This document shows positions 15,257-63,788 of a DNA stretch of 64,000 nucleotides, piece after piece. Under the pieces are notes generated by a model, which searched no databases, was not told where the DNA came from, and saw only the letters and a program-made list of their open reading frames with translations. How positions within the stretch are numbered: the stretch's first letter is position 1; each line of letters begins with the position of its first letter. Source of the stretch: Steroidobacteraceae bacterium. GTDB lineage: Bacteria > Pseudomonadota > Gammaproteobacteria > Steroidobacterales > Steroidobacteraceae. The stretch spans positions 27,808 to 91,807 of the forward strand of contig JBJMWM010000026.1 in assembly GCA_045810105.1 (NCBI GenBank), read 5' to 3'. The position numbers and the translations under genes are program-made.

Positions 15257-16068
15257 GGCAAGCGGGTGTCGGCTGCCGTGGAAAATTCGTAGCGCGTCAA
15301 CGAGCCCGTGCGTGCAATTGCAGCCAGAGAGCGATTGGCCGCTCTGTAGCGACGGGCCAACCGGATCAGTGGAGCCAACTCATTGGGCGCGAGCGCCAGC
15401 GCGCCGATCAAACGCCAGACCTGCAGATGTCCCTCACTATCCGCGGCCGCCGTCACCGCACGCGGCAGGACATCTGCCGCGCAATCGACGATCACGCGCA
15501 CGGCGATGAACGGTAGTTGGTGTTTTGTGGCAACTTCGCCCACCGCCAGGCTTTCCATATCCACGGCCGCGGCACCGGTGGCCTGGAACAATCCAGCCTT
15601 GTCCGCGACCGTACCGATGGCGCGGGAGGTTGTCAGCAGCTTACCGCTACGGACGGGTGCAAGCGCCGCGACCGCACGGCTCAGCCGCTCCCGCCAGGCT
15701 GTGGCAGTGTTTAAGCGCTGTCCGTCCGACCCGATCACCTCTGTCGGCAGAAGAATGGCGCCGGCGCTCAGAGTTGGATCGAGCCCTCCAGCCATGCCCC
15801 AGCTCGCCAGCGCGCTGGCACCAGCGTCGACGAGGGCGCGGGACCCGGCGGCAGCGGCCGCGTTGCCCATCCCGGTTACGGCAACGAGCGTGCCGTCGGC
15901 AAGCGTCGCCAGCGCAGGCTTGTTCAAACGTACGGTTGGCCCCAGGTGCCGCGCTTCCGAGGCCAGCGCGCATACGATCCCAACTACGACGTTCAGTGCC
16001 AATGCGCGGCTCCGGGCCGCACCAGGTTGCGATAGGCGGACAGTGCCCAGAGCGGAAAGTACGCGCAA
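15253..16068 (-). CDS. hpnG: hopanoid-associated phosphorylase / adenosylhopane nucleosidase
   Basis: PNP/UDP-1 family features (VGIVCALASEA..., GMGNAAAA). The start is uncertain: ATG 16068 overlaps shc by 76 nt, whereas TTG 16002 overlaps it by only 10 nt. Confidence 0.7.
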   Translation of the reverse strand: MRVLSALGTVRLSQPGAARSRALALNVVVGIVCALASEARHLGPTVRLNKPALATLADGTLVAVTGMGNAAAAAGSRALVDAGASALASWGMAGGLDPTLSAGAILLPTEVIGSDGQRLNTATAWRERLSRAVAALAPVRSGKLLTTSRAIGTVADKAGLFQATGAAAVDMESLAVGEVATKHQLPFIAVRVIVDCAADVLPRAVTAAADSEGHLQVWRLIGALALAPNELAPLIRLARRYRAANRSLAAIARTGSLTRYEFSTAADTRLP

Positions 16069-29390: not shown

Positions 29391-29432
29391 CTTCCAGGTC
29401 CGGTGTTGCAAGGCCCGTCTTAGGCGATGTAG

Positions 29433-30046: not shown

Positions 30047-30202
30047 CCGGGGCGCTGCGGGTCGGGCTCGGGCGCGATGCCTTAGCGAGCGGGAGACGAT
30101 AGTGAGGGGGTTAAACGTTTTCTTCAGTAGTGGACCGTACCCGTCACGGGAGCGGACCTGCTGTTGCTTGTTTGCAACATTCTACGGTTGGGGGGATTTC
30201 GA

Positions 30203-36605: not shown

Positions 36606-38819
36606 ATGTTGACAGGTCAGATGTTCGAGGCTGCCATGCTCCACCACCGCGGTGGACGTCTGAGGGAGGCCGAGCGTCTCTATCGGCTAATCCTGGAGGC
36701 AGACTCCAACCATGCCGAGGCATTGCACATGCTCGGCGTGCTCGCTTATCAGACCGGTCAACAGCAACTCGCAATCGAGATGATCAGCCGCGCGATCGCC
36801 CGGAACGGGCAGATGCCCGCCTTTCACAACAACCTGGGCAATGTATACGCAGCTGCCGGCAATTGGCAGGATGCGGAAACCTCGTTCCGACGGGCCTTGG
36901 ATCGAAAGCCGGATTACGCCGAGGCTCACTACAACCTGGGGAATGCCCTGCAGGCCCAGAACAATCTCGAGGCTGCGGCAGCCGCGTATCAGCACGCTCT
37001 GCGGCTTCGGCCAAACCATGCCGAGACCTGCCTCAACCTCAGCAACGTTCTGCAAGCGCAGGGCAAGTTGGAGGAAGCGCTCGAAGCCTCTCAGCGGGCG
37101 ATTGCCTTGAAGCCGGATCTGGCCGCCGCGCACAATAATCTGGGCAACATCCTGGCAGCGCAGAACCGCTTCGAAGCTGCGGTGGCTGCATACTCCCGAG
37201 CGCTCACCCTGAGGCCCAACCTCGCGGAAGCGCATCACAATCGGGGGCTCGCCCTGTTGAACGCGGGACGGGCAGACGAAGCGGCGGTGTCGTGCCGGCA
37301 AGCCGTGTCGCATAAGCCGGATTACATCGCAGCCTACATCACTCTCGGGCATGCCCTGACACAGAGCGCAGATACTGAAGAAGCTTTACGGTGCTATCAA
37401 CGCGCCATCACTCTCGATCCAAACTGTGGGGAGGCCATGTGGGGGTGTGCGGTTGCGCCAATTCCGATCGTCTGTGGCAGCGTCGTTGAGAGCAAGGCGG
37501 CAGCGGAAACATTTGGTCGCCACCTGGACACATTGGTGCAGTGGAGTGGCGCGCACCCGGGAAAACTCGGCGAAGCCGTCGGCCGGGTTCAGCCGTTCTA
37601 TCTCGCATACCGGCCATCCGATGCGACGGCCGTCCTGTCCCGCTACGGGGACCTGGCAAGTACCGAAGGCACCGCCTATTGGAAGCCGCCGGCAGTAGCC
37701 GATCGAGGGTCTCGACCGGATCGGGACCGCATCCGCATAGCGGTAGTGAGTGGGCACGTGAGGCAGCGCCATCCTGTCTGGGAAATCATACTGCGTGGGC
37801 TGATTGCGCACCTGGATCCACAGCAATTCGAGGTGGTTCTGTATCACACGGGTGCGGCTGTCGATGAGGAGACCAACTGGGCCCGCGGGCAAGTCGCACG
37901 CTTCGTGCAGGGCCCCAAACCAGTGAAGGTTTGGCTGGCCGAGATCGTCCACGGGCAACCCGATGTGATCTTTTATCCCGAGCTGGGAATGGATCCAAAC
38001 ACCGGTACCCTGGCCGCTTTGCGGCTGGCCCCTCTGCAGATCGCAGGCTGGGGACACCCGATCACGACCGGGCTACCGAGCATCGACTGGTTTCTGTCTG
38101 CCGAGCTCCTCGAGAGTCCGCAGGCTGAGCAACACTACCGAGAGAGACTCGTACGCTTGCCCGGAACGGGCGTGTACACCGAATTTCGCGCACAGCAGAC
38201 CGAGAGTTGGGATGGCCCCGAGCGGCGCAAAGACTTTGTCCGCTTCGCGTTGTGCCAGCAGCCTGCCAAATTCGATCCGGGGGACGATGTGCTCCTCGCG
38301 CGCCTTGCGAAGGCTGTCGGAGCCGCTGAATTCTGGCTGGCGACACCGAGGAACATGCCATGGACCGCTGCGAAGCTCCGCGAGCGGCTTTCGCTCGCTT
38401 TCCGAGCTGAGGGCCTCGATCCGGAGGCGTACCTGCATACAACACCCTGGTTGCCCCGCCAGCAGTTCCTGAGCTTCCTCGAGGAAATGGACATTTATCT
38501 GGATTGCCCCGCTTTCTCCGGCTACACGACAGCCTGGCAGGCGCTCCATTGCGGTCTGCCGATCGTTACACTCGAGGGGCAGTACCTTCGTCAACGGCTC
38601 TCAGCAGGTTTGTTGAGGCAGGTCGGGACAACCGACGGCATCGCTTCCTCCCGCGAGCAGTACTCAGCGACGGCGATTGGTTGGGCGAACGAATGTCGGG
38701 ACGCCGAGCGCTGGGCTGCGCGCCGCGCCGAGCTTCGTCGCGCAGCGGCACGGGCCGACGGAAACGCTGCCGCGATCCGCGTGTTCGAGCAGCGACTACG
38801 GGAAGCGTTTCAGCGCTAA
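36606..38819 (+). CDS. TPR-repeat protein with C-terminal SPINDLY/OGT-like (GT41) glycosyltransferase domain
   Basis: About seven TPR units (AEAHYNLGNALQAQ, AETCLNLSNVLQAQ, AAAHNNLGNILAAQ ...). The C-terminal RIRIAVVSGHVRQRHPVWEIILRGLIAHLDPQQFEVVLY is typical of the GT41 catalytic half. Confidence 0.8.
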   Translation: MLTGQMFEAAMLHHRGGRLREAERLYRLILEADSNHAEALHMLGVLAYQTGQQQLAIEMISRAIARNGQMPAFHNNLGNVYAAAGNWQDAETSFRRALDRKPDYAEAHYNLGNALQAQNNLEAAAAAYQHALRLRPNHAETCLNLSNVLQAQGKLEEALEASQRAIALKPDLAAAHNNLGNILAAQNRFEAAVAAYSRALTLRPNLAEAHHNRGLALLNAGRADEAAVSCRQAVSHKPDYIAAYITLGHALTQSADTEEALRCYQRAITLDPNCGEAMWGCAVAPIPIVCGSVVESKAAAETFGRHLDTLVQWSGAHPGKLGEAVGRVQPFYLAYRPSDATAVLSRYGDLASTEGTAYWKPPAVADRGSRPDRDRIRIAVVSGHVRQRHPVWEIILRGLIAHLDPQQFEVVLYHTGAAVDEETNWARGQVARFVQGPKPVKVWLAEIVHGQPDVIFYPELGMDPNTGTLAALRLAPLQIAGWGHPITTGLPSIDWFLSAELLESPQAEQHYRERLVRLPGTGVYTEFRAQQTESWDGPERRKDFVRFALCQQPAKFDPGDDVLLARLAKAVGAAEFWLATPRNMPWTAAKLRERLSLAFRAEGLDPEAYLHTTPWLPRQQFLSFLEEMDIYLDCPAFSGYTTAWQALHCGLPIVTLEGQYLRQRLSAGLLRQVGTTDGIASSREQYSATAIGWANECRDAERWAARRAELRRAAARADGNAAAIRVFEQRLREAFQR

Positions 38820-38933: not shown

Positions 38934-40463
38934 CTAGAGTGCAGGAAGCCCATGCGGTTCTTGAGGTGCTGCGCAGTGCTGGGCTATGAAAGCCTCATGC
39001 AATGGCATGTCGGCAGCACACTTGGCAACGACGTCTCGTATATTGTCGAGCGCTCTCTGACCCCGTTCGAAGGTCAACGCGTCAGCCCTCGGGTCGTAGC
39101 CTTCGGGGCGCACATCCTGACCTACGAACAGGTACAGCCAGCTCTGCACGTTGAATAGCTCGTTCTCATCGCGCACGATGCGGCCGTAGCTGCGGAAGAG
39201 ATCCAGGCGCTCCCTGAGGCTGTCGGGCAGCTCCATGTTGCGGCAGTAGCGCCAGAACTCGCCCTCGCGCTCCGTCTTGTTGTAGTGGACTATCAGGAAA
39301 TCGCGGATGCGCTCGTACTCGAAGGCAAGCTGCCGGTTGTAACGATCGATGTCCGGTTGACTGAACCGGCGGTCCGGAAAGAATTGCCAAAGCAGCGCGA
39401 TGCCGCGCTGGATCAGGTAAATACCACTCGATTCGAGCGGCTCGAGAAATCCCGCGGCAAGCCCGATCGCGACGCAGTTCTTGTTCCAGCTCAGCCGCCG
39501 CCGTCCCGTCGTAAATCGCAGCGGCAGTGGATCGCGCAACGCGCGGCCCTCGAGGCTCGACATCAGCTTCTGCTGCGCCTCATCGTCCTGGACGAAGCTA
39601 CTGCAATACACATACCCGTTACCCACCCGGTGCTGCAGAGGAATTCGCCATTGCCAGCCGACATCACGCGCAGTAGCGAGGGTGTGCGAGGAAAACGGGC
39701 CAGTCCGTTCGCATGGGACCGCTACAGCACGGTCACACGGCAACCACCGCGTCCAGTCCTCGTATCCGGTCTTCAGCGCCCCTTCGATCAGGACACCGCG
39801 GAAGCCGGTACAGTCGACAAAGAGATCAGCCTCGATCTGCTCGCCACTCTCGAGCGTGAGTGACGCGATGAAGCCGTCCTCGGGCCTGAGGGTAACGCCT
39901 TGGAGTTTGCCCTCCGTCCGGATAACGCCGCGCGCTTCTGCGTAGGTCCGCAGGTAAGCCGTCAAGAGCGAGGCGTCCAGATGCAAGGCATAGGTGATGG
40001 TCTCAACGGGCGACTTCGGGACTTTGATCGGTCGCATGAAGCGTCCCTGACGAGCCGCCACGGCCTGCAACGAATACTCTTCGAGCGGGCTCGCCCGGCC
40101 GCGCTCGCGGTGTTTGAACCAGTAGGCAGAGAATTCCACTCCCCCCTGAGGCAAACCCGTTGGGCCGAAGGGGTGGATGTAGGAGTGCCCGGGCCGCGTC
40201 CAATCCTTGAATTCGATGCCGAGCTTGAAGCTTGCCTGGGTCTTGCGGATCAGCTCATTCTCGTCGATGCCGAGCAGCCTGATGGCATCGATGATAGGCG
40301 GGATCGTTGCCTCACCCACCCCGATGGTACCAATTTCGGCCGACTCGATCAGACGGATGCCGCATTCCGTGCCCTCGAGGAATTTGGCCAGTATGGCAGC
40401 CGTCATCCACCCGGCTGTGCCCCCGCCGACGATGGCGATGCTGCGGATTCGATCGAGGGGCAC
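38934..40463 (-). CDS. flavin-dependent tryptophan-halogenase-family protein 2
   Basis: GGGTAGW, GVGEATIP, Lys in ASFKLGIEF, canonical WxWxIP as GWQWRIPL, and GFLEPLESS. GTG start. Confidence 0.85.
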   Translation of the reverse strand: MPLDRIRSIAIVGGGTAGWMTAAILAKFLEGTECGIRLIESAEIGTIGVGEATIPPIIDAIRLLGIDENELIRKTQASFKLGIEFKDWTRPGHSYIHPFGPTGLPQGGVEFSAYWFKHRERGRASPLEEYSLQAVAARQGRFMRPIKVPKSPVETITYALHLDASLLTAYLRTYAEARGVIRTEGKLQGVTLRPEDGFIASLTLESGEQIEADLFVDCTGFRGVLIEGALKTGYEDWTRWLPCDRAVAVPCERTGPFSSHTLATARDVGWQWRIPLQHRVGNGYVYCSSFVQDDEAQQKLMSSLEGRALRDPLPLRFTTGRRRLSWNKNCVAIGLAAGFLEPLESSGIYLIQRGIALLWQFFPDRRFSQPDIDRYNRQLAFEYERIRDFLIVHYNKTEREGEFWRYCRNMELPDSLRERLDLFRSYGRIVRDENELFNVQSWLYLFVGQDVRPEGYDPRADALTFERGQRALDNIRDVVAKCAADMPLHEAFIAQHCAAPQEPHGLPAL

Positions 40464-40481: not shown

Positions 40482-41798
40482 TCAGTAACGGCAGTGCCGC
40501 GCGATCAGGCTCTCGGCCAACTCCTGTTTACCGGAACGCGGCGCAGGATCGAGCCCCTTGTCGGTAGCCAGATCCGCCAGGCTGGCAAGATTCAGCTCCC
40601 CGCCCAGGATTCGCTTACCGAGCTCGCCACTCCAACCCTGATAGCGCTCCTGCTTCAGCCGCTGCAATGCGCCGTCCGTGACGATATCGGCCGCTGCCAG
40701 CAAGGCCCGTGAGATCGTATCGATACCGCCGATGTGAGCGAGGTACAGGTCGGCGGGATCCACGGACTGGCGGCGCAGCTTGGCATCGAAGTTGAATCCG
40801 CCGGTGGTGAAGCCCTGGTCCTCGACCAGCTGCACCAGCGCGGGCGCCAGCTCCTGCGCATTGTTGGGGAACTGGTCCGTGTCCCAGCCATTGCGCGGAT
40901 CGCCGCGGTTGATGTCGATTGAGCCGAAGATGCCGTAGGCGCGCGCCGCGGCGATCTCATGCTCGAAATCCAGGCCCGCAAGTGTTGCGTGGTTGACCTC
41001 GATGTTGACCTTTACCTCCTTCGTCAGCCCATAGCGCTGCAGGAAGGCAAACACGGCGGCCACGTCATGATCGTACTGGTGCTTGGTGGGCTCGAAGGGC
41101 TTCGGCTCGATGAGAATGGTGCCTTTGAAGCCGATCTTGTGTTTGTGCTCCACCACCAGCGAGAGAAACCGGCCGTATTGATCCAGCTCGCGGCGCAGGT
41201 CGGTATTCAACAGCGAGTCGTAGCCTTCGCGGCCGCCCCACAACACGTAGTTCTGGCCACCCAGGCGGTGCGTGGCCTCCAGGCAGCAGCGCACTTGCGC
41301 CGCGGCCCAGGCGTAGACCTCCGGATCGGGGCTGGTGGCAGCGCCGCCGGCATAGCGCGGGTGACTGAACAGGTTGGCCGTACCCCACAGGAGCTTCACC
41401 CCGGTAGCGGCCATCTTCTGCGCCATGCCCGCTTCGATCGTCTTCAGGTTCCTGTCGTGCTCTTTGAGCGTGGCCGCGGTGGCCATGGCATCCACATCAT
41501 GGAAGGTGAAATATGGCACCCCGAGGCGCTTGAAGAAGTCGAACGCGGCTTCGAGCTTGCTGTCCGCCATGGCCTGGGTGACCGGTGTGCCGATCCAGGG
41601 CCGGTTCAGCGTTCCGCCGCCAAAGATATCCGCACCCGGCCAGTTGAAGGAGTGCCAGTAGCACACGGCGACTTTCAGCCACTCCTCCATGCGCTTGCCA
41701 AGGACCACGCGGTCCTTGTCATACACACGGTACGCAAACTCGTTCTTCGTGCTGGGTCCTTCGAAGCGAACGGGCTCAACACTTGAAAACAAACTCAT
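40482..41798 (-). CDS. xylA: xylose isomerase
   Basis: 438 aa. FEGPSTKNEFAYRVYDKDRVVLGKRMEEWLKVAVCYWHSF and FHD/WGGREGY motifs. Confidence 0.95.
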   Translation of the reverse strand: MSLFSSVEPVRFEGPSTKNEFAYRVYDKDRVVLGKRMEEWLKVAVCYWHSFNWPGADIFGGGTLNRPWIGTPVTQAMADSKLEAAFDFFKRLGVPYFTFHDVDAMATAATLKEHDRNLKTIEAGMAQKMAATGVKLLWGTANLFSHPRYAGGAATSPDPEVYAWAAAQVRCCLEATHRLGGQNYVLWGGREGYDSLLNTDLRRELDQYGRFLSLVVEHKHKIGFKGTILIEPKPFEPTKHQYDHDVAAVFAFLQRYGLTKEVKVNIEVNHATLAGLDFEHEIAAARAYGIFGSIDINRGDPRNGWDTDQFPNNAQELAPALVQLVEDQGFTTGGFNFDAKLRRQSVDPADLYLAHIGGIDTISRALLAAADIVTDGALQRLKQERYQGWSGELGKRILGGELNLASLADLATDKGLDPAPRSGKQELAESLIARHCRY

Positions 41799-43635: not shown

Positions 43636-44673
43636 TCAGAGGGCGGCCGAAGAGTCCCGCTTGACGAGGGTGAAATTCATGAAGTGCTGCAGGGGTTCGA
43701 GCGTCTCGCCGAGGCGGCGGCGCCGGATCTCCTCCAGGAGCAGCTCCACGGCCTTGCGGGCCATTGCGGCCACCGGCTGGCGTATGGTCGTCAATGCGGG
43801 CCAGATGGTCGTGGCGAGCGGCGTGTCATCAAAACCCGCGATGGTCAGGTCTTTTGGCACGTCCAGGCGTACGCGATGAGCGGCGGCAATCGCCGCGGCG
43901 GCCATGTCATCGTTGCTTGCGAATATAGCCGTCGGTTTGCGTGCCGAGCTGAGCATCTGGTCCGCTGCTACCAGGCCCGAGTGATAGCTGAATGATCCTT
44001 GCTTCACCCACTCGGGGTGCACCGGCACGCCAGCCTCGCGCAGTGCCAGCTCGAAACCGGCGCGCCGTTGGGCACTGACAGTCTGGTTTGCAGCGCCCAC
44101 TATGAGGCCGATGTCGCGGTGGCCGAGGGACAGGAGATAACGAGTCATGGCCGCGGCCGCTTCCAGGTCATCGATACGCACCGACAGCCCCGATTCCTCC
44201 GCGCGTCCGGTAGCCACCGCGACGAAGGGGATCTTGGCAGCGCGCAGGGCCTCGAGCGCGATGTTGGAATCTGACAACGGCGGCGGCAGAATGACACCAC
44301 CGACGCCATCACCCAGGAGCCGCTCAATTGCCGTGCGCTCGTTGCGGGCGCCGCACTTTTCCAGCACGAGCTGACATCCGGCACGGCTGGATTGCTCGAG
44401 AACACCGACCAGCAGCTCGTTCAGGTAAGCCGCGCTGGGGTTGTTGTACAGAAGCCCGATATGAACCGTGGCTGCCCTGGCGAGGTTGCGGGCGGCGACG
44501 TTGGGCGAGTAGCCCAGTTCCTTGATGGCGGCCTGCACCCGTTGGCGCATGTGCTCTTGTACGTGGGCGTCGCCGCTGAGGGCACGCGATACGGTCATTG
44601 GCGAGACACCGGCGTGTTTCGCGACTTCATGCATCGTCACTGCGTTTCGGCGCCTGCGGGGCGTTCTTTTCAC
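43636..44673 (-). CDS. LacI-family transcriptional regulator (XylR-like by context)
   Basis: VTMHEVAKHAGVSPMTVSRAL HTH and a periplasmic-binding-protein-like sugar domain. Only the C-terminal 345 codons of ORF 43636..46122 are protein-like. Start is GTG 44673; GTG 44640 and ATG 44634 are alternatives. Confidence 0.85.
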   Translation of the reverse strand: MKRTPRRRRNAVTMHEVAKHAGVSPMTVSRALSGDAHVQEHMRQRVQAAIKELGYSPNVAARNLARAATVHIGLLYNNPSAAYLNELLVGVLEQSSRAGCQLVLEKCGARNERTAIERLLGDGVGGVILPPPLSDSNIALEALRAAKIPFVAVATGRAEESGLSVRIDDLEAAAAMTRYLLSLGHRDIGLIVGAANQTVSAQRRAGFELALREAGVPVHPEWVKQGSFSYHSGLVAADQMLSSARKPTAIFASNDDMAAAAIAAAHRVRLDVPKDLTIAGFDDTPLATTIWPALTTIRQPVAAMARKAVELLLEEIRRRRLGETLEPLQHFMNFTLVKRDSSAAL

Positions 44674-44802
44674 TTCTGACCTCAGCGCTGTTCGATGCCG
44701 CCCATTGTAGCAAGCGCGCGCGTCCACTCCGGCGCCTGGATTTGAACTTTGTAGCAGACAGCCGCACACTGCGCAGCCTGCCGCATTAGACTTAAGTGGA
44801 CG

Positions 44803-45906
44803 ATGGATATGGCCACACGTCGCAAGTTCGTCATGCAAGCTGCCGCCCTCGCCGCGGCGCCTTTCATCAGCACCACGGTGACCCGCGCGCTGGCCGCCGC
44901 GTCCAAAAAGAAACTGGGCTTCGCCCTGTGCGGTCTGGGCAGTCTGAGCACCGGGCAGATTGCCCCGGCGCTGCAGAAAACGGCCAATTGCCGCCTGGCC
45001 GGCATCATCACCGGCACGCCCGCGAAGGCGGTCCAATGGAAAGCGCAGTACAACATTCCCGCTCGGAACATCTACAACTACGAGAGCATGCATCGCATTG
45101 CCGACAACCCGGACATCGATGTCGTGTACGTGGTGACACCCAATGGCTTGCATCTGGACCATGCGCTCCTCGCCGCGAAGGCAGGCAAGCACGTGTTCTG
45201 CGAAAAGCCGATGGAGATCTCCGTGGCGCGCTGTCAACAGATGATCGATGCTGTCAAAGCAGCCGATCGGGTACTCGGGATCGGGTACCGGTGCCAGTTT
45301 GAGCCACACCACCTGGAGTGCATGCGGATTGCGCGCGAGCGCGAGTTTGGCGCAGTCAAAGTAATCGATGCGCACTTTGGCTACAACAGCCCTCCAGGGG
45401 TATGGCGCTTGAACCGCGCGCTCGCCGGCGGGGGCCCGTTGATGGACGTGGGGATCTATGCCTTGCAGGCAACCAGGTATCTGACCGGCGAGGAGCCCGC
45501 GTGGGTCTCGGCCACGACGACCCAGGGCGATCGCGCGCGCTTCGCGGAAGTCGAGGAGTCGGTACTCTGGGAAACGAAGTTTCCCGGGGGCGCAGTCAGT
45601 CACTGCAGCAGCAGCTACAACGCCGCCGGAGTCGGTTACTTTCGCGTACTCGCGGAGCGCGGTTGGTTTGGTTTGGATCCCGCGTTCAACTATGGCGGGC
45701 TGCACGGCATGCGTAGTGATGGTAAAGCGATTGAATTTGCGGCCACTGACCAGTTCGCCGTCGAGATGGATGACTTTGCCCGCTGCATCCTGGAAAAAAC
45801 ACCCACGCGGGTACCTGGAGAAGAAGGCCTGCGTGATGTGAAGCTCATGATGGCCATTTACGAGTCGGCGCGGACGGGCAAGCCCGTGGAGTTGCGCAGC
45901 GCCTGA
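44803..45906 (+). CDS. Gfo/Idh/MocA family oxidoreductase with twin-arginine signal peptide
   Basis: Tat motif TRRKFVMQAAALAAAP. Rossmann GFALCGLGSLSTGQIAPAL. EKP motif FCEKPM. Confidence 0.85.
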   Translation: MDMATRRKFVMQAAALAAAPFISTTVTRALAAASKKKLGFALCGLGSLSTGQIAPALQKTANCRLAGIITGTPAKAVQWKAQYNIPARNIYNYESMHRIADNPDIDVVYVVTPNGLHLDHALLAAKAGKHVFCEKPMEISVARCQQMIDAVKAADRVLGIGYRCQFEPHHLECMRIAREREFGAVKVIDAHFGYNSPPGVWRLNRALAGGGPLMDVGIYALQATRYLTGEEPAWVSATTTQGDRARFAEVEESVLWETKFPGGAVSHCSSSYNAAGVGYFRVLAERGWFGLDPAFNYGGLHGMRSDGKAIEFAATDQFAVEMDDFARCILEKTPTRVPGEEGLRDVKLMMAIYESARTGKPVELRSA

Positions 45907-45945
45907 GAGCGGGCCTGCGAGGGCGGGCCTCGTGGCACTGGCGCC

Positions 45946-46091
45946 GCACTGCTGGCCTCGCACTGCTGGTCTCGCACTGCTGGTCTCGCACCGCTGGCCC
46001 GCACCGCTGGCCCGCACCGCTGGCCCGCACCGCTGGCCCGCACCGCTGGCCCGCATCGCTGGCCCGCACCGCTGGCCCGCATCGCTGGCCC
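45946..46091. repeat. tandem repeat: 3 x 14 bp (GCACTGCTGGYCTC) then 8 x 13 bp (GCAYCGCTGGCCC)
   Basis: Unit boundaries were counted directly. The unit length is not a multiple of 3. It is intergenic, between the oxidoreductase stop (45906) and the kinase-like gene start (46200). Confidence 0.9.
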
Positions 46092-46199
46092 CGCGGCGTG
46101 GCCTCGCCGCCCTCCCTTTCATCTGCGGCCACTGCGCCTTATCCAGTGATATCTTTGCGTGTTCTTGCGGGCTTGGATCAGGGGACGGCGGTGGTGGCG

Positions 46200-56710: not shown

Positions 56711-57349
56711 TCAGGATCCCCGCGAGCCCATCCGAGACATCGACGGATCCGTCCCAGCCCGCAGCAATTTGACCACCGACTGCGCGGAGGGTAGCTCGTT
56801 GGTTCGCCACATGAGGCACGCGTGGCGATCGATGATTTGAACCTGGGTGGCATGCGAGGTGAACGAATCGGCTCGCGTACCGAAGAATTGCAGCAGCTGC
56901 GGGAGTCTCATCGCTTCGGGCACCGCGGCGACCCAGCCCTGCCGCGCCCCGAAACGTTCGAGCCATGCCCGCAACTGCGCCGCCGTGTCCTGAGCTGGAT
57001 CGATGCTCAACGAGAGCAGCTGCGCTCCTTCTTGCACATGCTCTGGAAAGAGACGCTGGACACGCTGAAAGATCGCTGCCTGCATGGGACAGGTCGTGGT
57101 GCAATGTGTGAAGACAAGCTGAAGTGCCGTCACCTTCTGACTGAGCAGCTCACGTAGACTAACGCGCCTGCCATCAGCCAGTTGCAATCGTGCATCTGGT
57201 ACGGTCACAGGAGGCACGATCGGTCCGTCATGCACGTTCGCCTGCTCCAAGGCGAACACCGCGCAGGGGAAACTGGCCGCGGCAGGTAGGCACACAAGGC
57301 TCCGCAACACAGCGCGCCGCTCCTGTTGTGGGTGGCGCTTCGGCGTCAT
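56711..57349 (-). CDS. SCO1/SenC family copper chaperone (thioredoxin fold)
   Basis: CxxxC copper site FTHCTTTCPMQ. ATG 57349 forms an ATGA overlap with the stop of the cytochrome c gene. Confidence 0.8.
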   Translation of the reverse strand: MTPKRHPQQERRAVLRSLVCLPAAASFPCAVFALEQANVHDGPIVPPVTVPDARLQLADGRRVSLRELLSQKVTALQLVFTHCTTTCPMQAAIFQRVQRLFPEHVQEGAQLLSLSIDPAQDTAAQLRAWLERFGARQGWVAAVPEAMRLPQLLQFFGTRADSFTSHATQVQIIDRHACLMWRTNELPSAQSVVKLLRAGTDPSMSRMGSRGS

Positions 57350-57804
57350 TGGGCCCGCTCCGTAAGAAATCTCCAGAGGGCATTGCATTCCTCGTCACTC
57401 AACTCGTATCGCGGCATCTCCACGTTGATCACGATGTACGCCGGGTCGACCCCCGCGCGCAGTAGGGAGCAAAACCGCTCACGGTCGTAGTGCGAGTTCG
57501 GGCCGCCGCGGCGTTGATGATTTGTCAGCAGCCATTGCGCGCTCAGGCGCGGGGCATTCGAATAAGGGACCGGGGCGGAGTCCCCGTACGGGTGGCAGTT
57601 CGAGCATCGCGCCGCATCGCTCGGAAGCTCGTCCGATTGCGTATACAGCCGGCCGTGTAATGGCGCAGGGCCGAGGAAAAGGCGGCTGCCGAGGCCGGTG
57701 CTACACTCACCTCTACACGGCTCAGACCGACCAATCGGCGTCCCGGCGCTCAAGAGCAGAGTCAGGACTGTAAACAACCCCGCACGATTGCCTCGAAGCC
57801 ACAT
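57346..57804 (-). CDS. monohaem c-type cytochrome, secreted
   Basis: Signal peptide. Single CxxCH site (CSNCH). The start lies 7 nt after the stop of the galactose-oxidase-like gene. Confidence 0.65.
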   Translation of the reverse strand: MWLRGNRAGLFTVLTLLLSAGTPIGRSEPCRGECSTGLGSRLFLGPAPLHGRLYTQSDELPSDAARCSNCHPYGDSAPVPYSNAPRLSAQWLLTNHQRRGGPNSHYDRERFCSLLRAGVDPAYIVINVEMPRYELSDEECNALWRFLTERAQ

Positions 57805-57811
57805 GACAGGC

Positions 57812-60247
57812 TCAAGGGACCCGAACTGTCACACCAACGCTCGGTACTCCCTTGGCATCGAGCGCAAACAGCATGTAGTAGCCCGGCAGCGCAATACCCG
57901 GATCGGCCGGTATAGTCAACGTGTACGTCGTGGCACTCGCTGCTGAAATGCTCAACGGGACCCGCCGCTGATCATTATTCACCGTATGAGTTGTTGCCGA
58001 TAGTCGCAGCAGGGCAAATTCTGTGACGACATTCTGTGTTGTTATGCTGATGCTGCTGCCGCGCTGCGCGGTGGGAGGGGCGGAACTGATGACTGGCCGC
58101 ACGGCTGCGCTGCCATCGGCGTTGAACAAATACGGCGGGCTGAGGATTTGGGCGTCCAGGTGGTTGTTCGGGCAGCCGACGCCGCACTGACCACCACCAC
58201 CCACGAAGACCCGCGCGTCCGGCAACAAAATGGCCGTGCTGTGATAGGTGCGTGGAACCTGCATCGGTACCAACATGTTGAACTGCTGTGTCCGCGGATT
58301 CCATATCTCAGGAACCAACACTCCATCCGTGTCGGTAAAGGGCTGCGGCAAGGTTTGCCCGCCGACGATCACTACTTCACCGTCGGGTAGTACGACCGCA
58401 TTGGCGAAAGCCCGCCGGTAGGTCATTCCGTTTAGCTGAGTAAGCTTGACGGGCTGCTTCGGACCTGCGGTGATATCAATGATGTAAGCCGAATTCGTGG
58501 CATAGGTGGGTGTGCTGGCATCCTGATTGTAGGAGCGCGAACCGCCCACCTTGAGGATCTTGCCGATGTCGTACAGCACCGCGTTGCCGTTGATGCTGAA
58601 CGGGTCCGAGCCCCGATTACCGGCGGATGTAATGGTGCCGGCGCCGGCTGTCGTGATCCAATTCATCTGGGCACTCGGACCTGCGTGGAAAACGGCGCCG
58701 TTGCTGGTAGCGAAGAGCCAGAGGTGGTTGTCACCACGATAAACCCCCTGGGGATCCGGTCCGATCACGTTGGTTTCCGGCACGCCGCTCAACACCGCCC
58801 AGCCAGTGGCCGATTTCCAGATCTCGGCCGTCTTGTTACCCCTGCCCCCGCTCCAGGACCCTCCCAGCGTGAACACGTCGCCAGTGGATAGCAGCGTGTC
58901 GCCCTCATAACCGCGCGGAATATTCATGCTCGCCGCGCTGGACCAAGCGTCTGCGATGGGGTCATACAGAGAAGTCTTGGGACTGCTCGAGCCGCCGTTG
59001 ATCAGGATCGTGCCGTTCGGCAGTACGGCCGTTCCCGGGCAGAACAGATCGGCACCGGTGACGGTCACCAGCACCTTGGTTGAAGTTCCGCTTGCCGGAT
59101 CGAAGCTTCCCGTGTAGGTCTGCCCGGCCGCGGTGTTGATATCGCTTTCGAAGGAGTACGGCGCGTAAGCCGACCACATCAGCAGCTTGCCACTGGGCAG
59201 ATTGGCAACGCCGATCGGGTTGACCGGCAAGGCAATCACGTCTGTCCACGTGGAGTTCAGAGTGGTGGCAACCGCCGACGGCGTGAACAGATCGAATTGA
59301 TCGTTGAGCGTCGTCGCCGGTTGACAGGGGTACTGGATGATCGGGGCGCCCGGGCTTTGCGAGTTTTTCGCGATGTTGACGCACTGCCCGCTGCTCGCCG
59401 AAATGATGTGATAGCTCGTGCCCACAGGCACGAGCTGCCATTGATCACTCGTGCCCGCTGATCCCTGACAGGTACTCTGAATGAGCTGTGTAGCCTGGAT
59501 GGTGGAGGCGCCGGGGACATTCAGGCATAGGCCGCTGAGCTTCGAGACTAAGTGGTAGTTGGAGCCGATGCGGCTCAGGACCCAGGTCTTATCGCTCTTG
59601 TCATCGCACACGGCCTGGACGAGGACGGCCGAGGGACTCTGGCTCGCATTACTGACAGCAACGCACTGCCCGCTGCTCAACGCGACAATCTCAGTGCTCG
59701 ACGGTTGGATCTGAGCCGCTATGCCGGGCATCTGCACGATCATCTGATCGTTGAGCACCGCGCTGCCCTGACAGGCCCACTCAACCACCCGCGCCCCGCT
59801 TGCCGCAGAGTTGCCTGAGATACTCACGCACAGTCCCGTCGCCACGGAAACCAGGTGAAAGCCGACGGCCTCGACAATCAGCTGCCATTGATCATTGAGC
59901 GCTGCGGGCTGGCATGGATACTGGATGAGCTGCGTGCCGGGCGTGCCGGAGCTGTGGGGTACATTCAGGCACATGCCGCTGTTCTGGGCAATGACGTGGT
60001 AGCCGGATCCCACTCGCACGAATGTCCAGACCGAACTGCTCTGGCCAGCGCAGGGAGTCTGCACGATGAGCGCGCCAGAGGTGGGGCTCGAATTCGCAAC
60101 GCTGACGCACATGCCACTGTTGGCGGCGACAATTGTCGAGGTGACACTTTGCGCGTGGGCGGGATGCGTCGCGCTGAAGCCCGCCAATACTAACGTTAGG
60201 GCGATGAGGATATCGCGCCAGAGCGGCTTGGGATCGCTGCGGATCAT
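57812..60247 (-). CDS. galactose-oxidase-type copper radical oxidase with two N-terminal ricin-B (beta-trefoil) lectin domains
   Basis: Signal peptide, then six QxW-type subrepeats (for example NSGMCLNV...NDQWQL). The catalytic part retains FCPG (crosslink Cys), RGY, GGSWSGG, RTYHS (Tyr-His ligands) and NNHLDAQ (His ligand). The C-terminal domain is ATHTVNNDQRRVPL...LPGYYMLFALDAKGVPSVGVTVRV. Confidence 0.85.
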   Translation of the reverse strand: MIRSDPKPLWRDILIALTLVLAGFSATHPAHAQSVTSTIVAANSGMCVSVANSSPTSGALIVQTPCAGQSSSVWTFVRVGSGYHVIAQNSGMCLNVPHSSGTPGTQLIQYPCQPAALNDQWQLIVEAVGFHLVSVATGLCVSISGNSAASGARVVEWACQGSAVLNDQMIVQMPGIAAQIQPSSTEIVALSSGQCVAVSNASQSPSAVLVQAVCDDKSDKTWVLSRIGSNYHLVSKLSGLCLNVPGASTIQATQLIQSTCQGSAGTSDQWQLVPVGTSYHIISASSGQCVNIAKNSQSPGAPIIQYPCQPATTLNDQFDLFTPSAVATTLNSTWTDVIALPVNPIGVANLPSGKLLMWSAYAPYSFESDINTAAGQTYTGSFDPASGTSTKVLVTVTGADLFCPGTAVLPNGTILINGGSSSPKTSLYDPIADAWSSAASMNIPRGYEGDTLLSTGDVFTLGGSWSGGRGNKTAEIWKSATGWAVLSGVPETNVIGPDPQGVYRGDNHLWLFATSNGAVFHAGPSAQMNWITTAGAGTITSAGNRGSDPFSINGNAVLYDIGKILKVGGSRSYNQDASTPTYATNSAYIIDITAGPKQPVKLTQLNGMTYRRAFANAVVLPDGEVVIVGGQTLPQPFTDTDGVLVPEIWNPRTQQFNMLVPMQVPRTYHSTAILLPDARVFVGGGGQCGVGCPNNHLDAQILSPPYLFNADGSAAVRPVISSAPPTAQRGSSISITTQNVVTEFALLRLSATTHTVNNDQRRVPLSISAASATTYTLTIPADPGIALPGYYMLFALDAKGVPSVGVTVRVP

Positions 60248-60573
60248 CTGATCCTCGCGAGTCTGCCTGTAATTTTGGAGTCAGAACTTAGCACGGAATG
60301 GCGTCCGCGCCAAACCCGCGCGCCGGCAGTCGGTCGTTGCGGTTGCAATCGATTCCCCGCGGCTCGGACGTGGGGCCCGCCGGCGCGCCCAGGCAGCTTG
60401 ACGGTCGGTTCGGGCTCGGTTCGGGCTCGGGGCACTCTTCGTCTATGACTCAGCATAGTGCCGATATACCACCTGGGCCATACGTATCATACGTAATCGC
60501 CGCGGGCCCGGATCGGCCTACACTGCGTAGCAGACCCTTGATAGCACGAGGCAGGTCTGCGGACCACGGGACA

Positions 60574-61368
60574 ATGAATACCGGCTCGACCGCTCACTCA
60601 CCCCGCCCCGATCCCGAGCAACTTCCGTTCGTCGCGCCATGTCACTGTATCGGGCCCTGGACCCCATTCCAATGGCTCCAACTCGGGTGGCAGGACATGA
60701 TTGCTGCATCACGAGAGAGCTTGTTCTACGGCCTGCTGTTCGCATTGCTTGGGGCCCTGCTCGCGGTGCTGACCTGGCGGCTTGGACTCCTGGCGCTGTA
60801 TGTCGGCCTCGCGAGTGGCTTTGTGTTCATCGGCCCCTTTCTCGCAATGGGCCTGTATTCGATCAGTTACCAGCGCGAACACGCCCACGACCCGACCCTC
60901 CTGTTCAGCCTTCAAGAAGGTCGAGCACACCTGCACGAAACGCTGGTGTTAGGGGTGTGCCTGCTCATTGTGCTGCTCGTGTGGGGACGGGCAGTTATGA
61001 TAATGAGCGTTTTTCTCCCGAGCGATGCGGTTCCCGCTTGGCATGCGCTCATTCCCTATCTGAGTATCGGGACCCTCGTAGGCGCGTTTTTCTGCGCGGT
61101 TGTGTTTGCCGCAACCGCCTTCTCACTGCCGATGCTCCTCGACCGTCGCGTCGACACCATTACCGCGGTAGTAACCAGCATTAACGCAACACTGCGGAAC
61201 AAACTCGCGATGCTCGTCTGGGCGTCAATCATAGTGACGGCCGTGCTGATCGGGTTCGCGACGATGTTTTTGGGTTTCATCGTAATTATGCCCCTCCTCG
61301 GTCATGCAACTTGGCATGCCTATCGTGGGACCATCGACGCCACCCCCTGGCCGGCAACCCATCCGTAA
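60574..61368 (+). CDS. DUF2189 family integral membrane protein
   Basis: The internal ATG 60574 gives a protein with about 5 TM helices. The conserved WLQLGWQDM...GFVFIGPFLAMGLY pattern is present. Confidence 0.7.
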   Translation: MNTGSTAHSPRPDPEQLPFVAPCHCIGPWTPFQWLQLGWQDMIAASRESLFYGLLFALLGALLAVLTWRLGLLALYVGLASGFVFIGPFLAMGLYSISYQREHAHDPTLLFSLQEGRAHLHETLVLGVCLLIVLLVWGRAVMIMSVFLPSDAVPAWHALIPYLSIGTLVGAFFCAVVFAATAFSLPMLLDRRVDTITAVVTSINATLRNKLAMLVWASIIVTAVLIGFATMFLGFIVIMPLLGHATWHAYRGTIDATPWPATHP

Positions 61369-61550
61369 AACGGCTGTCGTCGCCGGGCGTAATCGAACTG
61401 CCTCTACATTCGCCCTGCCCTGCCTGGATCGATGTGCGGTACCCCCTCGCAACACAGGCTTTGAGCGGTTATCCTCGGGCTTCATCCGCGCAATACCTGG
61501 TAGCAACTCGCTGAACCACGGGCATGAGAATTTGTGTTGGGCCAGAGACG

Positions 61551-61841
61551 ATGATGAACAGCAAGAGCAAATCCGACCCGCTGCATGAAATTCCGGCAGA
61601 TTTGTCCGAGGCCCTCGGCTCGCAAGCCACCACGCAGGCCGCCTGGAAGGATCTGACGCCGCTGGCGCGGAACGAATGGATCTGTTGGGTCATTTCGGCC
61701 AAACAGGCAGCGACGCGCAGCCGCCGGATCCAACGCGCGGTCGAGGAGCTCCAGGCGGGCAAGCGCCGCCCCTGTTGCTGGCCCGGCTGTCCGCATCGCC
61801 GGCCGAGCGCAAAGAAGTGGTTCGAGAGGCGAGCGCGCTGA
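61551..61841 (+). CDS. YdeI/OmpD-associated family protein
   Basis: IPADLSEALGSQATTQAAWKDLTPLARNEWICWVISAKQAATRSRRIQRAVEEL matches the YdeI C-terminal domain pattern. Confidence 0.65.
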   Translation: MMNSKSKSDPLHEIPADLSEALGSQATTQAAWKDLTPLARNEWICWVISAKQAATRSRRIQRAVEELQAGKRRPCCWPGCPHRRPSAKKWFERRAR

Positions 61842-61877: not shown

Positions 61878-63662
61878 TCACATCGAGGGCTGCCGTTTCG
61901 GCTTGAGCAACCCAAACTTCCGCAAACGATATTCCAACGCGGCCCGGCTCAACCCTACCGCACGCGCTGCGGCGGAAACGTTGCCTCGATGACGCTCCAG
62001 TGCGTCAGCCAACAGCCGCCGCTCGACTTCCGGTAGCGTCGGTTGCGTGTTCGCCGTGGGGGTGGGCGTGGCTCCGAGGCTGCGCCTGAGGGTGCCGGAC
62101 GGGCTGATTTCCATTGAACGTGCTTCCAGTTTCTCTCCATGCCGAAACATGTGCGTGACATCGATCAAGTCACCGGGCTCAGCAAAGACAACGCCGCGTT
62201 CAATGAGGTTCTGCATCTCGCGCACGTTGCCCGGGTAGTCATAGCTCAACAACGCCTCGATGGCACGGCGCGTAAAACCGCTCCGGGCGACTCGATGCTG
62301 GCGCGAATACAAGCGCAGGAAATGATCCATCAGCAACGGAATATCGTCCCGACGCTCGCGCAGGGGCGGCAAATCGATGGGAAATACGTTCAAGCGGAAA
62401 AACAGATCTTCGCGAAAGCGTCCGGCCGCAACTTCCTTGCGCAAATCCACATTGGTCGCGACGACGACGCGTACATCGACTTTCGTGGTGCGCGTGCTGC
62501 CAATACGCTCGATCTCGCGCTCCTGCAGCACTCGCAGCAACTTGCCCTGAGACACCGGGCTCAATGATGCGATTTCATCCAGAAACAGAGTGCCGCCCTG
62601 AGCGCGCTCGAAACGGCCAGCGCGCGAATGAGTTGCCCCTGTAAACGCGCCCTTCTCCACTCCAAATAGCTCGGCCTCCATCAAACTGTCCGGAATAGCG
62701 GCGCAATTGACGGCGATGAACGGCCGCGCACGGCGCGGACTCATTTCATGGAGCGTGTGCGCAAATAGTTCCTTACCGACGCCCGATTCCCCCGCCAGCA
62801 ACACTGTCGCGTCGGTCCGTGAGACACGTTCCAGCATGTGGCGTGCAGTGATGAAGCTGCCCGAGACGCCCACCACGTGATCCGATGCGAGATCATTGTC
62901 ATCGTTAGTGAGTTCCTTCACCTGGGGCACCGCAGCGCGCGGTGGCGGCTTGAGAGCCTGCAAATCGAACTTGTCGGCAGCATCGCCCCAAGCGTCGACA
63001 GGCTGCCCTATGCAACGGCAATACGGCGCCCCCATGGCGCGACACTCCACCTCGCGGAACAGAATGAGTTTGCCGAACAACCAGCTCGTGTAACCCGTCG
63101 GATATGCAATCTGCAGCCAGCACATGGGTTGATTGGCAACGGCATGTAACATCAGATGTTCGTCTGCTTCACTCGAGTCCCGCCACAGGAACTCGCCATA
63201 GTAGTGACCGGAATCTACGTCGTATTCGAACCGCACGGTCTCTGCTTTGACATAGCCCTCGATGGTGTGAATGCGCGGACCAGCACCCAGGTAGTGCGTG
63301 AGGTCCTTATCCGGCCATCGCTTGCGAATCAGCTGCGCGTCGCGTGCGCCTTGCGCGTAACCCACGCGAGAAAATACGCCGCGGGCCCGCTCCAGTCCGA
63401 CCAGGTCGATGAGCTCCTGGCGCAGCCGGCTCAGCGTGGCCGTCTGCATCAACACTATGCGTTGGTCGTTGAGCCAGGCCCGCCCATCTCCCGGCGAGAA
63501 ATAGATGCACTCTGCCAATTCCTCCAGAGTCGGCGTTGCCTGTTCTGCGAGCTCTTCGCTGCGGCCCCTATTGAGCATGCGTCCCGACTGCCGCGAGGCT
63601 TCTGCCAACGAGATCCGGTTGGGCATGGCCCCGGACGAGGCTTTTGGTTCCCTTGGTTTCAT
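61878..63662 (-). CDS. sigma-54-dependent transcriptional activator of the XylR/DmpR type (XylR_N + V4R sensor, AAA+, Fis HTH)
   Basis: AAA+ motifs [17 protein letters not shown] and Walker B LFLDEI. The N-terminal sensor [27 protein letters not shown]...[17 protein letters not shown] is XylR/DmpR-like. C-terminal [27 protein letters not shown] 63662. Confidence 0.9.
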
Positions 63663-63788
63663 CAAATGAGTATATCAGCTCAGATGCTTCATCAAGTCAT
63701 GAAATCGAGGCGACCACAGACAGCCCCGCCCAAGATGTAACTCATTGTTCTTGCGCATTGTTGTATTGGCATCCGCAATTTAGCTATT

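Follow-up and report, generated by a model that had tools for sequence, protein, structure and literature searches.

A galactose-oxidase-type gene with two ricin-type trefoils, and its putative cytochrome c and Sco neighbours, in a Steroidobacteraceae bacterium

We analysed a 64,000-nucleotide stretch of a Steroidobacteraceae genome (assembly GCA_045810105.1, contig JBJMWM010000026.1, positions 27,808 to 91,807; the window hereafter), centring on a minus-strand gene of 811 codons referred to below as the oxidase. Alignment, conservation and modelling support its assignment as a predicted galactose-oxidase-type (AA5_2-like) copper radical oxidase with a complete set of cofactor residues. The oxidase is followed by genes for a small putative cytochrome c and a copper chaperone of the SCO1/SenC family (Sco), an arrangement that recurs in several bacterial phyla. 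We consider it reasonably probable that the product is a Sec-exported AA5_2-type oxidase directed at galactosides, to which the Sco protein would deliver copper and for which the cytochrome c would act as a redox partner. The gene had been described in a first-pass annotation made from the nucleotide letters, and the open reading frame proposed there (57812-60247, minus strand, 811 residues) is present. Coordinates of all features are collected in Table 1.

Results

Cofactor residues, substrate pocket and enzyme class

Residues 332-810 of the oxidase aligned to residues 159-637 of mature Fusarium galactose oxidase (phmmer against the Protein Data Bank (PDB), E 8e-117), and a rebuilt alignment gave 44.9% identity over 470 aligned positions with few gaps. 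The block-by-block match to the fungal enzyme from about residue 330 onwards, which the first-pass annotation had noted, is borne out by this alignment. Its description of the protein as a close homologue is fair as far as the identity of 45% goes, but the Pseudarthrobacter enzyme (52%) and at least 150 cluster representatives are closer. Six of the seven motifs quoted in support occur verbatim, whereas the seventh, the THTVNNDQRR motif, is one letter off and reads ATTHTVNNDQRRVPL in place of the quoted ATHTVNNDQRRVPL.

In this register Cys228, Tyr272, Trp290, Tyr495, His496 and His581 of the mature Fusarium enzyme correspond to Cys403, Tyr447, Trp465, Tyr668, His669 and His754 of the oxidase. 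The four copper ligands, namely the equatorial Tyr447, the axial Tyr668, His669 and His754, all fall in register and do not vary among 44 homologues; W465, R504, Y573 and F637 are invariant in the same set. Cys403, which lies in an FCPG motif at the thioether position, is conserved in at least 90% of 44 full-length homologues; the cross-link itself is predicted. The register map and the conservation uphold the earlier statement that all copper and radical-cofactor residues are intact, but one ligand had been misplaced. NNHLDAQI had been taken to supply the second histidine ligand; its His696 aligns with Fusarium His522, a residue that does not ligate copper. The true second histidine ligand is His754 (equivalent to His581) in the THTVNNDQRR motif, which had been listed without an assignment. 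A reading of the protein as a pseudo-enzyme or pure lectin was ruled out, the catalytic residues being all invariant.

The pocket of the Fusarium enzyme is also largely retained: Phe194, Gln326, Tyr329, Arg330, His334, Tyr405, Pro463, Phe464 and the Cys515-Cys518 pair are kept. In fungal aliphatic alcohol oxidases Trp290 is replaced by Phe and carbohydrate activity is lost (PMC4703870). Retention of both Trp290 and Arg330 therefore favours a carbohydrate substrate, short of proof. The Arg330 equivalent is likewise kept in a bacterial enzyme solved with galactose (9G8H; FRSDNH segment of the alignment). Gln406 is replaced by Asn574 in the oxidase, and 9G8H has no Gln at this position either (YDNS in the alignment). 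A carbohydrate substrate is plausible for the predicted pocket, and so is the glycan-type substrate foreseen in the earlier account, with Trp465, Arg504, Tyr503, Phe366, Phe637 and Tyr573 all conserved.

Against structures of galactose oxidases, AAO and AlcOx the oxidase gave E values of 1e-106 to 1e-152, compared with 1e-29 against GlxA, where the match was limited to the C-terminal part, and 1e-10 against the Fusarium glyoxal oxidase 9n3u. The predicted enzyme is closer to AA5_2 than to the AA5_1 glyoxal oxidases or GlxA. Membership of the GlxA family was rejected on the NCBIfam model NF052501, which scored 134.3 bits against a cut-off of 800 and covered residues 583-811 only. The two outcomes that had been named as counting against the galactose oxidase assignment, ligands out of register and a place in a clade of GlxA or glyoxal-oxidase-like proteins, were not found in their literal form.

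Domain architecture

Pfam recognised RicinB_lectin_2 (148.6 bits, cut-off 25.6) and Ricin_B_lectin (107.7 bits) over approximately residues 36-315, followed by Kelch motifs (Kelch_6) and a GO-like_E_set domain at 717-810. A full-length AlphaFold (AF2) model built on 44 homologues reached a mean pLDDT of 84.9, and low-confidence linkers at residues 174-182 and 323-325 part two all-beta trefoils from the propeller. When the model was searched with Foldseek, galactose oxidases were the top PDB matches, and the catalytic part superposed on the Colletotrichum alcohol oxidase 5C86 with a TM score of 0.92 and an rmsd of 2.3 Å. The propeller holds Cys403, Tyr447, Trp465, Tyr668 and His669 together with the pocket residues Phe366, Tyr503, Arg504, Tyr573, Asn574 and Phe637. 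At the N-terminus the model shows a helix at residues 10-26 and low pLDDT at 24-33; we placed the presumed signal-peptide cleavage point after residue 32 by the AxA rule.

The domain assignments support the view that the N-terminal CBM32 module of the fungal enzyme is replaced by two beta-trefoils. Their CBM13/ricin-B fold is secure: trefoil 1 matched ThreeFoil 3pg0 (phmmer against the PDB, E 1.4e-15), and residues 229-307 of trefoil 2 matched the ricin B lectin 3vsf (PDB, E 3.7e-9). Sugar binding is only predicted. Each trefoil comprises three sub-repeats of about 46 residues with one conserved Cys pair apiece, so that the earlier count of two trefoils and six sub-repeats stands. The label 'QxW-type' fits less well: a literal Q-x-W occurs in none of the six sub-repeats, whose core motifs read, in order, VW, DQW, DQM, TW, DQW and DQF. 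The sub-repeat Trp is present in four of the six (the alpha and beta repeats) and is replaced in both gamma repeats, by Met and by Phe.

The downstream putative cytochrome c and Sco genes

The Sco start codon overlaps the cytochrome stop codon as ATGA, and no terminator was found between the oxidase, cytochrome and Sco genes. Two terminator-like matches fell inside the oxidase reading frame; they were fewer than expected by chance and were discarded. This gene context leads us to infer a translationally coupled operon of three genes, headed by the oxidase.

Synteny was assessed by tblastn and phmmer against 84 fetched loci. Cytochrome and Sco genes adjoined the oxidase in 63 of them; because 7 of the 21 negative loci end less than 1 kb from the oxidase, this corresponds to 63 of 77 informative loci. 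Sixty of the 63 keep all three genes on one strand and in the order oxidase, cytochrome c, Sco. Hosts of the trio include Burkholderia, Chromobacterium, Undibacterium, Rhizobacter, Sphaerotilus, Acetobacteraceae, Terriglobales, Bryobacterales and Polyangia. In the nearest relative and in B. pseudomallei the three genes stand amid wholly different flanking genes, and none of the other window neighbours (YCII, hydantoinase, DUF2189, OmdA and the XylR-type activator) was syntenic with the oxidase among the fetched loci.

A metagenome scan with the single cytochrome protein gave one short contig, OUNM010618474.1 (4-518), which carries the C-terminus of an oxidase followed by a cytochrome c. No Sco homologue was detected over the next 2.5 kb, so that this variant of the module lacks the chaperone.

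We read the small protein as a putative divergent class-I monohaem cytochrome c. Pfam returned no match to the 152-residue protein at E <= 0.01. Across 64 orthologues the CxxCH motif (C67/C70/H71), Met130-Pro131, a Cys112/Cys140 pair and an RRGGP motif are invariant. A profile built from 25 members matched haem-c domains best when searched against the PDB (E 0.004-1.3), bar one marginal unrelated match. The proteins matched included cytochrome subunits of fructose and alcohol dehydrogenases, NorC, 7w2j (E 0.004) and 2L4D, a natural fusion of Sco and cytochrome c. Weak matches to the Pfam families Cytochrom_C and Cytochrome_CBB3 were obtained for 18-19 of the 25 members.

Assignment of the Sco protein was more direct, with 46 bits to PF02630 against a cut-off of 22.8. 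Its copper ligands, CxxxCP (C83, C87, P88) and H166, are invariant in 64 orthologues, and the signal sequence carries a twin-arginine motif in 63 of these 64. The motif points to export by the Tat pathway, unlike the usual membrane-anchored Sco. Such export would imply a folded, soluble and possibly pre-loaded chaperone.

Some relatives are fused to a further haem protein. In Rhizobacter sp. Root1238 (5827-10965, plus strand) the oxidase forms the N-terminal part of a 1,712-residue protein, where it is followed by Ig-like (He_PIG), F5/8 type C, PKD and YncE-propeller domains and then by a CCP_MauG/RoxA-like di-haem cytochrome c peroxidase region. Discoidin-plus-CCP fusions were found in 34 fetched loci, 29 of which also keep separate cytochrome and Sco genes; the Rhizobacter fusion was scanned with Pfam, and sequence matches to the discoidin and CCP segments of this protein identified the other 33. 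These fusion relatives are ricin-less and 1,400-2,250 residues long.

Composition and phylogeny

A comparison of GC content and codon usage with the flanking genes had been proposed as a check on foreign origin, and it showed the oxidase to be typical of the window. Across 43 probable genes of the window, GC was 0.625 ± 0.017 and GC3 0.737 ± 0.038, compared with 0.608 and 0.740 for the oxidase, whose codon usage correlated with that of the rest of the window at r = 0.95, among the highest values. Composition thus gives no sign of recent acquisition.

A neighbour-joining tree of 186 catalytic regions (100 bootstraps, midpoint root) paired the oxidase with a protein of assembly GCA_003427375 in 99/100 replicates. 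Both sit in a 12-member, all-bacterial, ricin-type clade (92/100) shared with Terriglobales, Bryobacterales, Burkholderia, Chromobacterium and Undibacterium. That Acidobacteriota and Proteobacteria are mixed in this clade points to exchange among soil bacteria. The phylogeny had been suggested as a way of detecting nesting of the oxidase within fungal AA5_2; instead, 13 named fungal sequences and one representative with a eukaryote-like signal peptide formed a clade of their own (99/100). The tree was built without the fungal AlcOx, AAO and RafOx subclades, for which lower PDB scores (360-384 bits, against 395 for the Fusarium enzyme) were the only guide.

The smallest group that contains the fungal clade without the oxidase adds sequences of which at least 80% have the discoidin architecture, in 100/100 replicates. 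Streptomyces, Lentzea, Actinosynnema and the Pseudarthrobacter enzyme belong to this discoidin branch; support for the exact 36-tip discoidin clade was only 28/100. Since the fungal clade is nearest to the discoidin-type branch, any transfer between fungi and bacteria would concern that other, older, CBM32-type branch. The affinity to actinobacterial discoidin proteins bears on the origin of fungal galactose oxidase.

Fungal galactose oxidases were also seen to share their CBM32-propeller-E-set plan with a large actinobacterial group (Arthrobacter, Lentzea, Streptomyces and Actinosynnema).

Distribution and earlier descriptions

A search of 5.8 billion proteins returned hundreds with the ricin-plus-oxidase architecture, the closest relatives having 72-76% identity. 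Proteins of Burkholderia pseudomallei, B. oklahomensis, B. pyrrocinia and Chromobacterium have the same architecture at 56-58% identity along their full length, and the nearest relatives of the oxidase are all bacterial (64-77% identical). A scan of one genome per prokaryotic species yielded 136 relatives, of which the best 80 provided loci. Among these best 80 were Burkholderiales, Chromobacterium, Undibacterium, Acetobacteraceae, Methylobacterium and methanotrophs, together with Terriglobales, Bryobacterales, Polyangia, Oligoflexus and Micromonosporaceae. Relatives thus occur in Proteobacteria, Acidobacteriota, Myxococcota and Actinomycetota. When 1.84 billion cluster representatives were searched with HMMER, 2,777 clusters (50% identity) were found at E <= 1e-30; the best 150 of these 2,777 scored 425-766 bits, compared with 395 bits for the Fusarium enzyme in a separate PDB search.

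Proteins combining CBM13 and AA5_2 were described by the CAZy authors in 2013, and the bacterial members of AA5_2 were put at about 270, 'primarily from Burkholderia', by Yin et al. 2015 (PMC4703870). Both the architecture and its spread among bacteria are on record in the literature and in CAZy, and the present gene adds one member. Because the type is already catalogued and common in soil bacteria, a recent import of the oxidase from fungi is not supported, and the main value of the gene lies in a correction: the resemblance to fungi is family-wide and old. In the literature searched, it seems that none of the ricin-type enzymes of Proteobacteria and Acidobacteriota has been characterised biochemically.

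Other features of the window

An AT-rich perfect inverted repeat, TACGTAT-G-ATACGTA (60481-60495), is found in the divergent region that the oxidase shares with the DUF2189 gene, some 235 nt before the oxidase start. The repeat stands out in surroundings of 62% GC and is a candidate operator. The listed DUF2189 reading frame looks over-extended by its first ~90 codons, because the domain starts at residue 169. The presence of a XylR-type activator upstream led us to look for sigma-54 promoters; the scan gave 37 matches against 37.8 expected, none of them credible upstream of the oxidase, and a sigma-70 promoter scan found nothing.

Elsewhere in the window, the segment 24691-46122 has the style of a carbohydrate-utilisation neighbourhood. 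Its xylose isomerase, which clusters with a Steroidobacteraceae protein, supports a proteobacterial host. The window contains no tRNA gene and gave no plasmid match. A predicted squalene-hopene cyclase gene indicates hopanoid synthesis in the host. The PD40-glyoxalase protein of 836 residues has an unusual pairing of domains, and its cluster at 90% identity has one other member, a fragment.

Table 1. Coordinates of the oxidase, its parts and other features in the window
Feature	Coordinates	Strand	Remarks
Oxidase gene (811 aa)	57812..60247	-	Open reading frame with ATG start; Pfam, PDB phmmer, AF2 model, Foldseek
Shine-Dalgarno-like GAGGA	60252..60256	-	4 nt 5' of oxidase ATG; read from sequence
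Sec-type signal peptide, residues 1-32 (...THPAHA/QS)	60152..60247	-	Without twin-arginine motif
Beta-trefoil 1, residues 34-173	59729..60148	-	Pfam, sub-repeat alignment, model linker 174-182
Beta-trefoil 2, residues 183-322	59282..59701	-	Pfam, sub-repeat alignment, model linker 323-325
Seven-bladed Kelch propeller, residues 326-715	58103..59272	-	Alignment to 1gof/1t2x and 9g8h; Foldseek
GO-like E-set (DUF1929), residues 716-811	57815..58102	-	Pfam PF09118, 88.2 bits; gives copper ligand His754
Putative small exported monohaem c-type cytochrome (152 aa)	57346..57804	-	Starts 7 nt past oxidase stop
SCO1/SenC-family copper chaperone (212 aa from Met14 of listed reading frame)	56711..57349	-	PF02630
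DUF2189 membrane protein	60298-61368	+	Upstream of oxidase
OmdA-family protein	61524-61841	+	Upstream of oxidase
XylR_N/V4R/sigma-54 activator	61878-63665	-	Upstream of oxidase
Squalene-hopene cyclase	15993-18005	-	Pfam E 1e-131, 1e-127
PD40 (WD40-like) beta-propeller repeats plus glyoxalase/dioxygenase-superfamily domain (836 aa)	24691-27201	-	
SASA esterase with galactose-binding domain	27261-29411		
TonB-dependent receptor	30164-33193		
TPR/GT41 protein	36606-38819		
Tryptophan-halogenase-family protein	38934-40463		
Xylose isomerase	40482-41798		Cluster at >=90% identity with a Steroidobacteraceae MAG (metagenome-assembled genome) protein
LacI-family regulator region	43636-46122		

Discussion

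In the mechanism that we propose for the galactoside-directed oxidase, the exported apo-enzyme would take up copper and self-process its Cys403-Tyr447 cross-link, as in the chemistry of the family. By the same chemistry the Cu(II)-tyrosyl-radical form would oxidize a primary alcohol to the aldehyde by two electrons and reduce O2 to H2O2. The most likely substrate would be the C6 hydroxyl of a terminal galactose or galactoside on a glycan, to which the trefoils may tether the enzyme. Gene context and the analogy with GlxA suggest that the Tat-signal Sco most likely hands copper to the Sec-exported apo-oxidase. The cytochrome c may carry out the one-electron oxidation of the resting Cu(II)-Tyr enzyme to the active radical; alternatively it may serve the redox cycle of Sco, a role suggested by the existence of Sco-cytochrome c fusions. 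The di-haem cytochrome c peroxidase fused to the oxidase in relatives suggests that haem partners may also use or remove H2O2.

These steps have precedents. Maturation of Streptomyces GlxA needs Sco and the haem peroxidase DtpA, and Gox and sco genes co-occur in some Burkholderia (PMC4736821). In fungi a tandem peroxidase activates AlcOx by one-electron oxidation (PMC9770985). We tentatively suggest that the trio is a self-contained periplasmic system for loading the oxidase with copper and switching it on, with a dedicated high-potential cytochrome c as native one-electron oxidant, an idea that we regard as a possibility rather than an expectation. If it is true, the trio would be a multi-phylum bacterial counterpart of the fungal peroxidase-AlcOx 'redox switch', which the Burkholderiales relatives, with a di-haem cytochrome c peroxidase joined to the oxidase, would take a step further. 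The literature searched yielded no description of the cytochrome, of the Tat signal carried by Sco, of the spread across phyla or of the peroxidase fusions. The operon and the peroxidase fusions are the only part that goes beyond the descriptions we could find, and they were partly anticipated by the Gox-sco co-occurrence.

Several observations weigh against the reading of the gene as a galactoside-directed, glycan-tethered oxidase with dedicated copper and redox partners. Fusarium Gln406 is Asn574 in the oxidase (Gln575 lies next to it) and the adjoining loop is longer by five residues; specificity may consequently differ from that for D-galactose. In classical CBM13 sub-repeats the sugar-binding Asp is that of the 'CLDV' position, after the first Cys-hydrophobic pair, and this position reads Ser, Asn, Ser, Ala, Asn and Asn across the six repeats. 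With the Asp replaced in all six, lectin activity and its specificity are unproven. For the putative cytochrome, Cytochrom_C scored 14.7 bits, under the Pfam gathering threshold of 21.3, and a single-sequence AlphaFold model was unusable (pLDDT 39). Fourteen loci with adequate flanking sequence lack the cytochrome-Sco module, so that the module is not obligatory for the family. Finally, the role of the cytochrome is inferred from synteny only, and the two roles considered above are inseparable on these data.

The first of these points feeds the strongest competing explanation, that the protein is a copper radical oxidase of primary alcohols other than galactose (aryl, aliphatic, hydroxymethylfurfural (HMF), other sugars or sugar alcohols) or acts on an unrelated polysaccharide. 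Specificities diverge widely among AA5_2 members (PMC11267884, PMC4703870), Gln406 is not conserved and the loop beside it differs. A 2022 review states that galactose oxidation has not been shown for bacterial galactose oxidase homologues, and the title of the report on the one characterised Burkholderia AA5 protein, B. pseudomallei AA5-CE3 (FEBS Lett 2023), speaks of an 'alcohol oxidase'. Set against this, the equivalents of Trp290, Arg330, Tyr329, Phe194 and Phe464 are retained and do not vary within the clade, and the two lectin modules point to a glycan substrate. Moreover, the nearest enzyme of known structure (9G8H) is a bacterial galactose oxidase whose crystals contain galactose. We therefore regard a non-galactose substrate as a serious contender that is nonetheless unlikely on balance.

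A second proposal concerns the biology of the enzyme and not its chemistry, and is compatible with the galactoside-directed oxidase that we favour. The oxidase could have a morphogenetic or matrix role and modify the cell's own exopolysaccharide or envelope glycan, as GlxA does with CslA in Streptomyces and FbfB in the fruiting bodies of Stigmatella; the alternatives would be to attack or sense foreign glycans, or to use H2O2 as a weapon. Predicted export of the oxidase and its partners to the periplasm is in keeping with a matrix role. However, the inspected loci, like the window, show no glycan synthase of the cslA type next to the module, the flanks vary between genomes, and lectin modules are commoner in enzymes directed at external glycans. 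A matrix role consequently appears rather unlikely to us.

Tight translational and syntenic coupling of oxidase and cytochrome could also mean that the cytochrome c is the physiological electron acceptor, the oxidase working as a cytochrome-c-linked dehydrogenase that feeds the respiratory chain. The best PDB matches of the cytochrome profile, to cytochrome subunits of membrane-bound sugar and alcohol dehydrogenases, would fit such a role, and H2O2 production in the periplasm would be harmful. Those matches are nevertheless marginal, with E values of 0.004 or weaker that can be put down to the generic class-I fold, and the cytochrome c peroxidase fusions in relatives imply that H2O2 is made. 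As we also know of no copper radical oxidase with an acceptor other than O2, we judge this role improbable.

Weakest of all is the fairly recent horizontal transfer between a fungus and a proteobacterium put forward in the first-pass annotation, in which the oxidase would nest in fungal AA5_2: the 45% identity that a bacterial and a fungal enzyme share over 470 residues with few gaps and the lateral acquisition from fungi proposed for the Streptomyces GlxA gene (PMC3543389) speak for it, but native composition, the all-bacterial ricin-type clade (bootstrap 92), the separate fungal clade (bootstrap 99) and the at least 150 clusters that outscore the fungal enzyme make it very improbable.

The ricin-type enzymes of Proteobacteria and Acidobacteriota could serve as galactose-oxidase-like biocatalysts that are expressible in bacteria and have built-in glycan targeting. 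The cytochrome c and Sco partners suggest a route to copper-loaded, radical-activated enzyme in a bacterial host, and the operon offers a testable model of the maturation and control of a copper radical oxidase in the periplasm.

Comparison with known systems

The closest solved relative is the galactose oxidase of Pseudarthrobacter siccitolerans (9G43; 9G8H with galactose, 2025; E 2.5e-152, 52% identity), for which no publication citing either entry was found in the literature searched. It shares with the window oxidase the cofactor residues, the stacking Trp, the Arg330 equivalent and a bacterial origin. Its single N-terminal module is of the discoidin/CBM32 type, in contrast to the two ricin/CBM13 trefoils described here, and it belongs to the discoidin-type, largely actinobacterial branch near the fungal enzymes, whereas the window oxidase lies in the ricin-type branch. 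Its nearest named relatives are discoidin-domain proteins of Arthrobacter and Pseudarthrobacter.

GaoA of Fusarium graminearum (1GOF), the AA5_2 archetype, likewise combines a carbohydrate-binding module with a seven-bladed propeller and an E-set domain. At 45% identity, the window oxidase differs from it in the exchange of CBM32 for two CBM13-like trefoils, in the replacement of Gln406 by Asn and in the longer loop adjacent to it. It has a Sec signal without the fungal pro-peptide, and its gene stands in an operon with those for cytochrome c and Sco.

Streptomyces GlxA, with Sco, ECuC and DtpA, is a bacterial copper radical oxidase whose Cys-Tyr maturation proceeds via Sco and a haem protein, and it provides the functional model adopted here. 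It is, however, only distantly related to the oxidase in sequence, differs in the arrangement of its domains, associates with the membrane and takes glycolaldehyde as substrate. The haem protein that partners it, a DyP peroxidase, is encoded at another place on the chromosome, in contrast to the adjacent class-I cytochrome c proposed for the operon in the window. The peroxidase-AlcOx pair of Colletotrichum and Magnaporthe resembles the operon in that an AA5_2 oxidase is genetically paired with an activating haem protein. There, however, the haem protein belongs to the class II peroxidases and its gene stands head to head with that of the oxidase; the enzyme acts on a long-chain alcohol, and the arrangement does not involve a copper chaperone.

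The proteins annotated as 'RICIN domain-containing' or 'lectin repeat-containing' in Burkholderia and Chromobacterium, which CAZy-based papers had listed before, have, as here, about 800 residues with two trefoils and the oxidase. They also have the same downstream cytochrome c and Sco genes and fall in the same well-supported clade as the window oxidase, from whose host, a member of the Steroidobacteraceae, they differ in lineage.

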